This document shows positions 31,791 to 44,002 of a stretch of 64,000 nt of DNA, piece by piece. This DNA comes from Escherichia phage KIT06. Position numbers and translations under genes: made by a program. The notes beneath the pieces were generated by a model, which did not search any database, was not told where the DNA came from, and was given only the letters and a program-made list of their open reading frames with translations. The number at the start of each line of letters is the position of its first letter. Positions within the stretch are counted from its first letter, which is position 1. The stretch is taken from the sequence record OQ349392.1. One strand, 5' to 3'.

Positions 31791-32032
31791 TGTCTGAACA
31801 AACTATTGAACAAAAACTGTCTGCTGAAATCGTAACTCTGAAGTCTCGTATCCTTGATACGCAGGACCAGGCGGCTCGTCTGATGGAAGAATCCAAAATT
31901 CTGCAAGGAACTTTGGCTGAAATTGCTCGTGCAGTAGGTATCACTGGCGATACTATCAAAGTTGAAGAAATCGTTGAAGCTGTCAAAAATCTTACTGCTG
32001 AATCTGTTGATGAAGCAAAAGATGAAGAATAA
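31790..32032 (+). CDS. 57A: tail fibre assembly chaperone gp57A
   Basis: 80-aa [26 protein letters not shown]...; size and synteny match T4 gp57A. Confidence 0.9.
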
Positions 32033-32487
32033 TGGAATTTAAAGACTTTTCAACGGGTCTTTATGTAGCAGCTAAGTTTTCAGAATTAACACTTGATGCG
32101 CTGGAAGAACTCCAGCGCTCTTTACGTGTTCCTAATCCAGTTCCTAGAGAAAAAATTCATTCGACCATATGTTATTCAAGAATAAATGTTCCATATGTTC
32201 CATCGAGTGGAAGTTTTGAAGTAGCTTCTTCTGGACATTTAGAAGTATGGAAAACACAAGATGGATCGACTCTTGTACTTGTGCTAGATTCTGAATATCT
32301 GCGCTGTCGACACATGTATGCGCGGGCACTAGGTGCTACACATGATTTTGATGATTACACACCGCATATAACATTGTCTTATAATGTTGGGCCCTTATCA
32401 TTTAGCGGTGATGTACAAATTCCGGTCGTATTAGATCGTGAATACAAAGAGCCTCTTAAACTCGATTGGGCAGACGATTTAAAATAA
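32032..32487 (+). CDS. 57B: gp57B; 2H-phosphoesterase-like cyclic-oligonucleotide nuclease (Acb1, anti-CBASS)
   Basis: 151-aa ORF with two H-x-T/S motifs ([16 protein letters not shown]); position of T4 57B, which has been described as Acb1. Confidence 0.8.
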
Positions 32488-32498
32488 TTTCACAAAGT

Positions 32499-32530
32499 TG
32501 TTTACACGCTGATGAGGTAGTGATACTATT
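32499..32530 (+). promoter_or_regulatory. early promoter plus stem-loop module (PeSL-like) upstream of ipI
   Basis: GTTTAC -35 at 32499-32504, gtGATACTAT -10 region, inverted repeat gatgag/ctcatc around the -10. Confidence 0.6.
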
Positions 32531-32559
32531 ATCTCATCAAAATTAATTAGGAAAATAAA

Positions 32560-32847
32560 ATGAAAACTTTCAAAGAATTTACTTCTACAACTATCCCGGT
32601 TTCTACTATTACTGAAGCTACTCTTACTTCTGAAGTTATTAAAGCAAATAAAGGACGAGAAGGTAAACCAATGATTAGTTTGGTTGATGGCGAAGAAATC
32701 AAAGGTACTGTTTACCTAGGTGATGGGTGGTCTGCTAAAAAGGATGGTGCTACAATCATTATCTCTCCTGCTGAAGAAACTGCGTTGTTTAAAGCTAAAC
32801 ACATTTCTGCGGCACATCTCAAGATTATTGCTAAAAATCTTTTGTAA
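32560..32847 (+). CDS. ipI: internal protein I precursor (capsid-targeted; mature IPI* would be 76 aa)
   Basis: 95-aa ORF with capsid targeting sequence MKTFKEFTSTTIPVSTITE followed by ATLTSEVIKANKGREGKPMISLVDGEEIKG... Confidence 0.9.
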   Translation: MKTFKEFTSTTIPVSTITEATLTSEVIKANKGREGKPMISLVDGEEIKGTVYLGDGWSAKKDGATIIISPAEETALFKAKHISAAHLKIIAKNLL

Positions 32848-32865
32848 TAAATATTTCACAAAGTT

Positions 32866-32897
32866 GTTTACATAGGGTTTTAGTTGTGATACTATTA
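32866..32897 (+). promoter_or_regulatory. early promoter plus stem-loop module (PeSL-like)
   Basis: GTTTAC at 32866-32871; gtGATACTAT -10 region; inverted repeat tagggt/accctat. Confidence 0.6.
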
Positions 32898-32923
32898 CCC
32901 TATCAACTACTGAGGAGAATAAA

Positions 32924-33196
32924 ATGAAAACATTTAAAGAATTTATCAATGAAGCTACTTTTAACGAAAAAGTAAAAATTAGCAAAGCTGTCAAGACTAT
33001 GATTGATAACATCAATTACCTATATGGTATTGATTTAACTGACTATGTAACAGTTGGTAACAAACGTAACTATTTCGTGTTTGACATCTCTGAACTTGAC
33101 CAGAATCAAATTAACAACATTGAGCGTTTTGCTAATGATAAGGGTCTTCGTCATGAGTCAGCGGGTTATAAAAAATACGCAATTTATTTAAAATGA
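32924..33196 (+). CDS. internal-protein-like capsid-targeted protein (ip cassette 2)
   Basis: 90-aa ORF starting MKTFKEFINEA (CTS-like), own promoter module, unrelated body sequence. Confidence 0.7.
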   Translation: MKTFKEFINEATFNEKVKISKAVKTMIDNINYLYGIDLTDYVTVGNKRNYFVFDISELDQNQINNIERFANDKGLRHESAGYKKYAIYLK

Positions 33197-33228
33197 GTTT
33201 ACTTTTAAATAGGGTTGTGGTACTATTA
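33197..33228 (+). promoter_or_regulatory. early promoter plus stem-loop module (PeSL-like)
   Basis: GTTTAC at 33197-33202; gtGGTACTAT -10 region; imperfect inverted repeat. Confidence 0.55.
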
Positions 33229-33256
33229 CCTTATCAAAATTAATTAGGAAAATAAA

Positions 33257-41503: not shown

Positions 41504-41529
41504 CATGAATTAAAACAATAGGAACAAAA

Positions 41530-42108
41530 ATGAAAACGTATCAAGAATTTATTGCTGAAGCTTCTGTAGTAAAGGCCAAAGGCATTAATAAGGACGAGTG
41601 GAACTATCGTGGTGGAAACGGCTTTGACCCTAAAACAGCCCCTATTGAACGATACTTAGCTACAAAAGCTTCCGATTTTAAAGCTTTCGCTTGGGAAGGA
41701 CTTCGCTGGCGTACCGATTTAAATATTGAAGTTGACGGACTTAAATTTGGTCATATTCAAGATGTTGTTGCTAGTAACTTGGACGCAGCTTTTGTTAAAG
41801 CTGACGGTGACCTTCGTCGCTGGAATTTAAAACTATTCTCTAAACAGAAAGGCCCGGTGTTTGTGCCTAAAGCTGGTAAATGGGTTATTGATAATAAATT
41901 AGCTAAGGCTGTCAACTACGCTGGCCTTGAATTCGCCAAGCATAAATCATCATGGAAAGGTCTTGATGCAATGGCCTTCCGTAAAGAATTTGCTGATGTT
42001 ATGGCTAAAGGCGGCTTTAAGGCAGAAATAGATACCTCTAAAGGTACGTTTAAGGACGCTAATGTTCAGTACGCTTATGCCGTTGCTAATGCAGCCCGTG
42101 GTAATTAA
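41530..42108 (+). CDS. ipIII: internal protein precursor, IPIII-like
   Basis: 192-aa ORF with CTS MKTYQEFIAEAS; assignment to ipIII is by size and position. Confidence 0.65.
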   Translation: MKTYQEFIAEASVVKAKGINKDEWNYRGGNGFDPKTAPIERYLATKASDFKAFAWEGLRWRTDLNIEVDGLKFGHIQDVVASNLDAAFVKADGDLRRWNLKLFSKQKGPVFVPKAGKWVIDNKLAKAVNYAGLEFAKHKSSWKGLDAMAFRKEFADVMAKGGFKAEIDTSKGTFKDANVQYAYAVANAARGN

Positions 42109-42110
42109 TA

Positions 42111-42128
42111 AGGCCGATACTTAGGCCT
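42111..42128 (+). terminator. hairpin after the ipIII-like gene
   Basis: aggcc-gatactta-ggcct stem-loop immediately after the stop; weak T-tract. Confidence 0.4.
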
Positions 42129-42285
42129 ATTTACATTCAAATAACATGGGAACAACCTGGACCTCATGATTCTATGAGGGATTCCCGCCAACCTGTAATA
42201 AGGTCGAGCCCAAGTGCGGTAATGGGTAAATACAGAAATGGACAATTCATGCGCCATGGAATGGCCCAAATTTAGAGAGAATAAA

Positions 42286-42825
42286 ATGAGAACATTTTTA
42301 ACTGGTCCTTATCTATCCCTGATGAATGCTTTTACACACCATTCTGATGCTAGAGTAGAAGAAATTTGTAAAAACGATTATATCCCACCATTTGAAGACT
42401 TACTCAAACAGTATTGTACACTTCGTTTAGATGGTGGCAGACAATCTGGTAAATCAACTGCAGTAACTAATTTTGCCGCTAATTGGTTATATGATGGTGG
42501 AACAGTTATTGTTCTTTCTAATACTTCAGCTTATGCTAAAATTTCTGCGGGCCACATTAAAAAAGAATTTTCTCGTTATTCTAGCGATGATATTCGATTC
42601 CGCTTATTTACCGATTCTGTCCGTAGTTTTATCGGTAATAAAGGAAGCAAGTTCAGAGGTTTATTGCTTTCGCGAATTTTGTATATAATTGATGATCCTG
42701 TTAAAGCTCCTGATATGGATAAAATTTACGATATTCATATTGAAACTGTGCACCACTGTTGCAATAGTAAATGCTGCATTGGTGGTATTACTCGTCCACA
42801 GTTTTTCATAATCGGAATGCAATGA
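42286..42825 (+). CDS. P-loop NTPase-like protein of unknown function
   Basis: Track ORF 42238..42825; ATG at 42286 with SD gagagaataaa; Walker A-like GGRQSGKST. Confidence 0.6.
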   Translation: MRTFLTGPYLSLMNAFTHHSDARVEEICKNDYIPPFEDLLKQYCTLRLDGGRQSGKSTAVTNFAANWLYDGGTVIVLSNTSAYAKISAGHIKKEFSRYSSDDIRFRLFTDSVRSFIGNKGSKFRGLLLSRILYIIDDPVKAPDMDKIYDIHIETVHHCCNSKCCIGGITRPQFFIIGMQ

Positions 42826-43151
42826 TGACAGACACGCAACTTTTCGAATATCTTTATTTTTCGCCAAAAACTGTTAAAAATAAATTGGTGAATCATTTTG
42901 AAATTTTGGCAAATAACAACGTCTTGAGCGAATTTTATCCTAAGCAATACAAACTACAAAAAGGTGTATTCAAAGGATGCAGAGTTTTGTGCACTGCTCC
43001 TAATGTAAGATTAATGAATAAAATTCCATATTTTACCATGGAATTTATTGATGGGCCTTTTAAAGGACTAATCACGCAGAGTTTAATGGCATATGATTCT
43101 GAGCCATTTTTAATTAAAGAGCAATCTTGGATAAATTTATTTTCTAATTGA
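42822..43151 (+). CDS. hypothetical protein
   Basis: Track ORF 42771..43151; ATG at 42822 overlapping the previous stop (ATGATGA); [13 protein letters not shown]... Confidence 0.55.
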
Positions 43152-43159
43152 GAGGTTAT

Positions 43160-43522
43160 ATGAAAGCATATCAAATTCTTGAAGGCACGCATAAAGGTAC
43201 TATTTATTTTGAAGACGGTATTCAAGCACGAATTATTGTCTCTAAAACTTTTAAAGAGGACTCTTTTGTAGACCCAGAAATTTTCTATGGTTTGCATGCC
43301 CGTGAAATTGAAATTGAAACACAACCTACAGTTAAAATTGAAGGTGGTCAACACCTGAACGTTAACGTTCTGCGTCGTGAAACTCTGGAAGATGCAGTTA
43401 AGCATCCGGAAAAATATCCGCAGCTGACCATCCGTGTATCCGGTTATGCAGTTCGCTTTAACTCTCTGACTCCGGAACAGCAGCGCGACGTTATCGCTCG
43501 TACCTTTACTGAGAGTCTGTAA
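43160..43522 (+). CDS. autonomous glycyl-radical cofactor (GrcA/YfiD-like; T4 Y06I-type)
   Basis: ATG 43160 with SD gagagg; C-terminal about 60 aa ([60 protein letters not shown]) matches the glycyl-radical domain of E. coli GrcA/PflB as I recall it. Confidence 0.85.
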
Positions 43523-43743
43523 TGGCAAAGATAATTATTGAAGGTTCTGAAGATGTGTTAAATGCTTTCGCCGAATGGTTTAGTAATTCAGGCGAACAGC
43601 AATTTAATGAAGCGTGGAACATGGGTGATATTAGTGGAATTTATCCTACGACAGAAATTTCTGTTCAGGGATATGGCATTCATGAGCCTATTCGTTTAAT
43701 TGAATATGATTTGGGTACTGGTGAGGAAGTAAAATATGATTGA
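43522..43743 (+). CDS. hypothetical protein
   Basis: 73-aa ORF, ATGG overlap with the preceding stop. Confidence 0.5.
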   Translation: MAKIIIEGSEDVLNAFAEWFSNSGEQQFNEAWNMGDISGIYPTTEISVQGYGIHEPIRLIEYDLGTGEEVKYD

Positions 43744-44002
43744 AGATATTAAGGGTTATAAGCCACATACTGAAGAGAAAATCGGTAAAGTGAATGCTAT
43801 CAAAGATGCTGAAGTTCGTTTAGGACTTATCTTTGATGCTTTATATGATGAATTCTGGGAAGCACTAGATAATTGTGAAGACTGTGAATTCGCGAAGAAT
43901 TATGCTGAAAGCCTTGATCAGTTAACTATTGCTAAAACTAAACTCAAAGAAGCCAGTATGTGGGCTTGTCGTGCTGTGTTCCAACCAGAGGAAAAATATT
44001 AA
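43736..44002 (+). CDS. hypothetical small protein (candidate vs.4/Acb2-position gene)
   Basis: 88-aa ORF upstream of regB; assignment by position only. Confidence 0.5.

Follow-up and report, generated by a model that had tools for sequence, protein, structure and literature searches.

The region from gene 57A to regB raises the question of whether a T4-like coliphage carries, at the places where T4 has them, both of the anti-CBASS genes of T4: that for the nuclease Acb1 (57B) and that for the cyclic-dinucleotide sponge Acb2 (vs.4). The first-pass annotation had proposed the former from motifs, size and position, and had expected the latter among the small ORFs just upstream of regB without settling on one. 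Our analysis indicates, with a probability of about 0.96, that the phage carries this two-gene toolkit at the same two loci as T4. Sequence identity, residue conservation, family membership and synteny all support this reading of the two ORFs, and we found nothing against it.

The window, i.e., the whole 64,000-nt stretch analyzed here, is a genome segment of a Tequatrovirus. Reciprocal tblastn showed it to be collinear with T4 in the order 1-57A-57B-ipI...e...vs.6-vs.5-vs.4-vs.3-regB, followed by vs.1 and vs. The two loci lie about 11 kb apart, each next to or near a conserved synteny anchor:

31790..32032, plus strand: 57A (tail-fibre chaperone), a synteny anchor, 97.5% identical to T4 57A
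32032..32487, plus strand: acb1 (gene 57B), an intact ORF for the 151-aa 2H-family cyclic-oligonucleotide phosphodiesterase
43736..44002, plus strand: acb2 (gene vs.4), an intact ORF for the 88-aa cyclic-dinucleotide sponge
44340..44801, plus strand: regB endoribonuclease, a synteny anchor, matching Pfam REGB_T4 at 229.9 bits and 98% identical to T4 RegB

The 57B ORF directly follows 57A, as in T4, and 150 of its 151 residues are identical to those of T4 57B (Acb1, NP_049750.1; 152 aa), which bears out the earlier assignment by position and size. The sole difference, V52I in T4 numbering, is conservative; this site is absent from the published list of functional residues and is V in the crystallised protein of FBB1. 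The ORF matches phrog_755 and the Pfam Acb1 model PF23474 (201.2 bits against a gathering cut-off of 27 bits, E 7.8e-60), with residues 8-149 covering model positions 1-144 of 144. The available Acb1 structures (PDB 7T26/7T27) are of a homologue from Erwinia phage FBB1; compared at the level of sequence only, the 7T26 chain aligns with the ORF at E 5.6e-62, with 95/141 identical residues and a single 1-residue gap, and the window protein is thus predicted to adopt the 2H fold of that solved structure.

Exactly two H-x-T/S motifs are present in the ORF, as had been noticed at first pass, and both are of the H-x-T form (ORF numbering equals T4 numbering minus 1):

32158..32166, plus strand: first catalytic motif H43-S-T45 (T4 H44/T46), read from the sequence, with its role per PMC9117128
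32365..32373, plus strand: second catalytic motif H112-I-T114 (T4 H113/T115), read from the sequence, with its role per PMC9117128

Two H-x-T tripeptides by themselves could arise by chance, but the whole-protein matches cannot. Beyond the tetrad, it retains the base-stacking aromatics Y12, W74, F107 and W147 and the adenine-reading E141 (T4 numbering), as well as the C-terminal lid (residues 145-152), its C-terminus being identical to that of T4. In Acb1, H44, T46, H113, T115, Y12, W74, F107, W147 and E141 are all catalytic or substrate-contacting, and the H44A/H113A protein, altered at both histidines of the HxT/HxT tetrad, is inactive (PMC9117128).

The vs.4 ORF is identical at 88/88 residues both to T4 Vs.4 (Acb2, NP_049728.1) and to the chain named 'Vs.4' in PDB 7UQ2, in which the T4 protein was crystallised with cGAMP. 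It scores 71.4 bits against Pfam PF24729 (Acb2/Tad1 hairpin; gathering cut-off 27 bits), with residues 7-83 spanning model positions 1-58 of 58, and matches phrog_717 (E 2.3e-32), the PHROG to which Jenson et al. traced the homologues of Vs.4. Given this complete identity, the residues of the cyclic-dinucleotide pocket (Y8, H11, K23, R79 and F82) and those of the hexamer interface (L29, A66, A73 and A77, plus F33), as listed in PMC10097602, are all present. The ORF occupies the same slot as in T4, between vs.5 and vs.3 and two genes upstream of regB; since vs.3 (44002..44280) alone separates it from regB, the vs.4 homologue is 43736..44002 and not one of its neighbours. Both neighbours were considered for this role: neither vs.5 (43522..43743) nor vs.3 matches the Acb2/Tad1 Pfam model, and they map to T4 vs.5 and vs.3, respectively. 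The doubt voiced at first pass over which small ORF corresponds to Acb2 is thereby removed, and the alignments proposed then have returned a full-length Acb2 match and a 57B ORF with its catalytic histidines in place.

The genes could be silent or mistimed in this phage, persisting as relics of ancestry and not as active counter-defence, a reading that we consider highly improbable. In its favor, the sigma-70 promoter scan of the window was at chance level (66 sites versus 63 expected), and the first annotated ATG of T4 57B is lost, being ATA here. However, this loss only shifts the start of translation by one codon, to a second ATG that is kept and forms a TAATG overlap with the stop codon of 57A. 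Neither ORF is interrupted, and vs.4 is tightly packed between vs.5 and vs.3 and preceded by a strong ribosome-binding signal:

43723..43729, plus strand: Shine-Dalgarno-like GAGGAAG for vs.4, 6 nt before its ATG and within the 3' end of vs.5

vs.5 and vs.4 share 8 nt, and a second TAATG joins the stop codon of vs.4 to the start codon of vs.3; these overlaps suggest co-transcription and coupled translation of vs.5-vs.4-vs.3. The vs.5 gene that overlaps the vs.4 start is present in the window in its full-length 73-aa form, whereas in the T4 reference a 1-nt deletion shortens it. That neighbouring accessory genes (vs.5 and vs.8) vary by frameshifts while Acb1 and Acb2 are 99-100% conserved argues for purifying selection on the latter. 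The expression of acb1 and acb2 in this phage presumably resembles that in T4. As for late transcription, a late-promoter-like TATAAATA lies at 31427 as a consensus match only, and the window as a whole holds 18 matches to TATAAATA against 10 expected, a mild enrichment.

We give hardly any credence to the reading of the 57B ORF as a LigT-like 2'-5' RNA ligase or an RNA-repair 2H enzyme with no part in immune evasion. The two HxT motifs are common to the whole 2H superfamily, and both the RefSeq name for T4 57B and the annotation of phrog_755 are 'RNA ligase'; yet this is an inherited superfamily name with no tested function behind it, and the dedicated Pfam Acb1 model spans the ORF end to end at 201 bits. 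Activity-guided fractionation pinned the cGAMP-degrading activity of T4 on 57B, its knockout abolishes cleavage, and T4 delta-acb1 suffers a >300-fold loss on CBASS hosts (PMC9117128). Transposon sequencing likewise found 57B to be dispensable unless CBASS is present. Similarly, it is scarcely credible that the 88-aa vs.4 protein is mainly a Tad1-like Thoeris gcADPR sponge or a general nucleotide binder: PF24729 is indeed common to Acb2 and Tad1, and both Tad1 and Tad2 have been reported to bind gcADPR as well as cyclic oligonucleotides, but the identical T4 protein binds 3'3'-cGAMP and other cyclic dinucleotides and antagonises CBASS in vivo, the anti-Thoeris role in T4 is assigned to the 64-aa Y16O/Sequestin and not to Vs.4, and we found no report of gcADPR binding by T4 Vs.4 in the cited literature.

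With both ORFs read as Acb1 and Acb2, their biochemistry, structures and infection phenotypes can be projected from published work on the T4 proteins, one identical to its counterpart here and the other 99% identical. Acb1 would act as a monomeric, metal-independent 2H phosphodiesterase in whose U-shaped pocket, shut by the C-terminal lid, a cyclic di- or trinucleotide is clamped; the enzyme would twist an adenosine, and the 2'-OH of this adenosine would then attack the 3'-5' bond over the tetrad. [quoted passage not shown] Acb2 would form a hexamer with three dimer-interface pockets, in each of which Y8 and F82 sandwich one cyclic dinucleotide, and such trapping would withhold the signal from the CBASS effectors. 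In keeping with this, the Vs.4 hexamer was described with three ligands and a cGAMP Kd of ~30 nM (PMC10097602), while a second study reported a Kd of ~84 nM and no binding of cA3 by T4-Acb2 (PMC10312549). The T4-type Acb2 does not bind cyclic trinucleotides. Acb1 and Acb2 would jointly cover most CBASS signals. T4 lacking both genes (delta-acb1/delta-acb2) is highly sensitive to a type II CBASS (bioRxiv 10.64898/2026.03.04.709575). The Acb2 of Pseudomonas phage PaMx33 belongs to the same family and is likewise a hexameric sponge with three cyclic-dinucleotide pockets; however, it is only ~24% identical to the T4 type and has a second pocket that accepts cyclic trinucleotides, ligands that the T4-type protein, as found in the window, does not bind (PMC10312549).

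Between the two loci the window also holds ORFs that are absent from T4:

32924..33762 and 41186..41503: extra internal-protein ORFs
34796..35320: ORF of unknown function, phrog_2290
36252..36602: ORF of unknown function, phrog_3355

These ORFs are flanked by or interspersed with acb1, ipI and acb2, three proven anti-defence genes. From this location and their variability between phages, one might speculate that at least one of them is an uncharacterised counter-defence factor, though we regard this as unlikely. Two accessory ORFs with no counterpart in T4 or EP01 had no match in Pfam, NCBIfam or PDB sequences; T-even phages commonly carry them as 'hypothetical proteins'.

Both anti-CBASS genes are already known and their presence here adds no new biology; the main value of the result lies in annotation. 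Many deposited T4-like genomes label acb1 and acb2 as 'RNA ligase' or 'hypothetical protein', and NCBIfam has no model for either protein. The correct labels predict how a phage behaves by host, and are thus useful for host choice and the design of therapeutic phages. The window phage should withstand most CBASS systems whose signal is 3'3'-cGAMP, cUA or cAAA. Panoptes (OptSE) works with decoy nucleotides and is set off by Acb2, and the phage should be open to attack by this system on account of its acb2. About 1,470 deposited phage genomes have a homologue of Acb1 and about 1,230 have one of Acb2, and an Acb1 protein exactly identical to that of the window has already been deposited in GenBank from Escherichia phage vB_EcoM_NBG2.

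By every sequence-level criterion tested, the Acb1 and Acb2 proteins of KIT06 belong to their respective families and are practically the type members themselves. The anti-CBASS finding is correct but already known, and its worth lies in annotation. The genes concerned are:

32032..32487, plus strand: acb1 (gene 57B), intact ORF, 151 aa
43736..44002, plus strand: acb2 (gene vs.4), intact ORF, 88 aa
44002..44280: vs.3, between vs.4 and regB
44340..44801: regB, two genes downstream of vs.4

Megablast searches with the 12-kb span, and with a wider stretch of 25 kb, matched hundreds of Tequatrovirus (T4-like) coliphage genomes. 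Escherichia phage EP01 was the best match (98% identity, 87–92% query coverage), and no single deposited record was ≥99% identical across most of the 25-kb query. A gene-by-gene comparison with the T4 reference (NC_000866, 60–78 kb; tblastn both ways) showed the plus strand to be collinear with T4, running from 1, 57A, 57B, ipI, trna.4-.2, the tRNA cluster and rnaD/rnaC, through e.8, e.6-e.2, nudE, e and ipIII, to vs.8-vs.3, regB, vs.1, vs and tk.4; denV, ipII, e.7 and segB do not occur where T4 has them. Silence of acb1 and acb2 in KIT06 is unlikely, because both genes are intact and 99–100% conserved while adjacent accessory genes show frameshifts; we infer that both are expressed as in T4.

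The first-pass annotation had read the 57B ORF as Acb1 from its H-x-T/S motifs and its match to T4 57B in position and size. This reading holds: there are exactly two such motifs (H43-S-T45 and H112-I-T114), the product is identical to T4 57B at 150 of 151 positions with the catalytic residues kept, and the Pfam Acb1 model (PF23474) covers it end to end (201 bits, cut-off 27). It also aligns with the crystallised Acb1 of PDB 7T26/7T27 (E 5.6e-62, 95/141 identities). Hobbs et al. traced cGAMP-degrading activity to T4 57B, named it Acb1, and described a 2H fold with an HxT/HxT tetrad (H44, T46, H113, T115), stacking residues (Y12, W74, F107, W147), an adenine-reading E141 and a C-terminal lid (PMC9117128). 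With a one-residue numbering offset applied, the KIT06 protein keeps every one of these features, and its sole substitution, V52I in T4 numbering, lies outside the functional list. The offset comes from the start codon: ATGATG in T4 is ATAATG in KIT06, so that only the second ATG, overlapping the 57A stop as TAATG, can serve as the translation start. Across both genes, this conservative substitution and start-codon shift are the only differences from T4. Phage vB_EcoM_NBG2 already has an exactly identical Acb1, and relatives occur in 1,471 deposited phage records (tblastn).

RefSeq and PHROGs label 57B an 'RNA ligase', but this is a superfamily name inherited from 2H enzymes, and direct biochemistry and genetics contradict it. 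Statements on mechanism rest on experimental work with the T4 proteins. Acb1 cuts 3' of adenosine in cyclic di- and trinucleotides via a cyclic-phosphate intermediate, metal-free, and does not cut cGG, 3'2'-cGAMP or cA4; in CBASS hosts, T4 lacking acb1 drops >300-fold (PMC9117128). Transposon sequencing indicates that CBASS presence makes 57B conditionally important.

A small ORF upstream of regB, at the vs.4 position, had been proposed as Acb2 with its identity left in doubt. The ORF at 43736..44002, with vs.3 alone intervening before regB, settles the matter: its product is 88/88 identical to T4 Vs.4 and to the PDB 7UQ2 chain. It matches the Pfam Acb2/Tad1 hairpin (PF24729; 71 bits, cut-off 27) and phrog_717, the PHROGs family in which Jenson et al. 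found Vs.4 homologues (PMC10097602). Necessarily, all published ligand (Y8, H11, K23, R79, F82) and hexamer-interface (L29, A66, A73, A77) residues (PMC10097602) are present. A Shine-Dalgarno sequence, GAGGAAG, lies 6 nt before the vs.4 ATG. Because vs.4 shares 8 nt with vs.5 and its stop overlaps the vs.3 start, co-transcription and translational coupling of the three genes are probable. Relatives of Acb2 were found in 1,231 phage records.

Vs.4/Acb2 forms a hexamer that binds cGAMP at three sites, with a Kd of ~30 nM (PMC10097602) or ~84 nM (PMC10312549); dinucleotides are ligands of the T4 type, cA3 and cAAG are not (PMC10312549). When T4 lacks both genes, it is highly sensitive to a type II CBASS (bioRxiv 10.64898/2026.03.04.709575). 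There is no support for Vs.4 acting against Thoeris in the manner of Tad1, and the anti-Thoeris sponge of T4 is another protein, Y16O. Carriage of acb2 is costly, since it is both necessary and sufficient as the trigger of the Panoptes decoy-nucleotide system.

Six ORFs (32560..33762 and 41186..42108) carry the T4 internal-protein leader MKT(F/Y)(K/Q)EF:

32560..32847: ipI, PF11634 'nuclease inhibitor', 98% identical to T4 IPI
32924..33196: leader-bearing ORF after ipI, not in T4, present in EP01
33257..33565: leader-bearing ORF after ipI, not in T4, present in EP01
33634..33762: truncated leader-bearing ORF, 42 aa, not in T4, present in EP01
41186..41503: ip-like ORF in place of T4 ipII, phrog_3966
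41530..42108: ipIII

T4 IPI is a known anti-restriction protein, a nuclease inhibitor, and IpI is a third known anti-defence gene of the span.

The tRNA cluster (35407..36235 and 36602..36863) comprises ten genes (Gln, Leu, Gly, Pro, Ser, Thr, Met/Ile-CAT, Tyr, Asn, Arg), where T4 carries eight, and lacks the segB homing endonuclease. After it come homologues of rnaD and rnaC, small RNAs of T4 (88% and 98.6% identity, respectively). The cluster is flanked by two ORFs of unknown function:

34796..35320: 174 aa, phrog_2290
36252..36602: 116 aa, phrog_3355

Both are found in neither T4 nor EP01 and have no Pfam, NCBIfam or PDB-sequence matches; homologues, invariably 'hypothetical protein', occur in 573 (phrog_2290) and 425 (phrog_3355) deposited T-even-type phage records.

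As for other differences from T4, denV (endonuclease V) is missing from the ipIII–vs.8 gap (42108..42240) and from the whole 64-kb window (tblastn), and the place of e.7 is taken by a 58-aa ORF (37481..37657, phrog_5461). Both vs.5 and vs.8 show frameshifting indels relative to T4:

43522..43743 (L001 3341..3558): vs.5, 73-aa ORF, full-length phrog_1986 match
42174..42825: vs.8, 8 nt (2 + 6) deleted near codon 30

In the T4 reference, vs.5 has lost 1 nt at codon 17, giving the annotated 58-aa frameshifted product; given the full-length match here, T4 appears to be the exception. The vs.8 deletion brings the T4-type frame to a stop at codon 33, with the remainder of the protein read from a downstream start (ORF listed from 42238; EP01 annotates an MRTFL start). 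The e.2 gene (39658..40146), which overlaps the nudE start, codes for 162 aa, against the 102 aa annotated in T4; as the KIT06 protein aligns with T4 DNA across all 162 residues (76% identity), the T4 copy appears to be truncated or differently annotated. Finally, the macro-domain protein Tk.4 (45685..46164; Pfam Macro, 32 bits) shares only 58% identity with its T4 counterpart, against 94–100% for flanking genes. Its resemblance to the DarG antitoxin macro domain is weak (27.7 bits, far short of the cut-off of 250), and it is possibly a diversifying enzyme that removes ADP-ribose.
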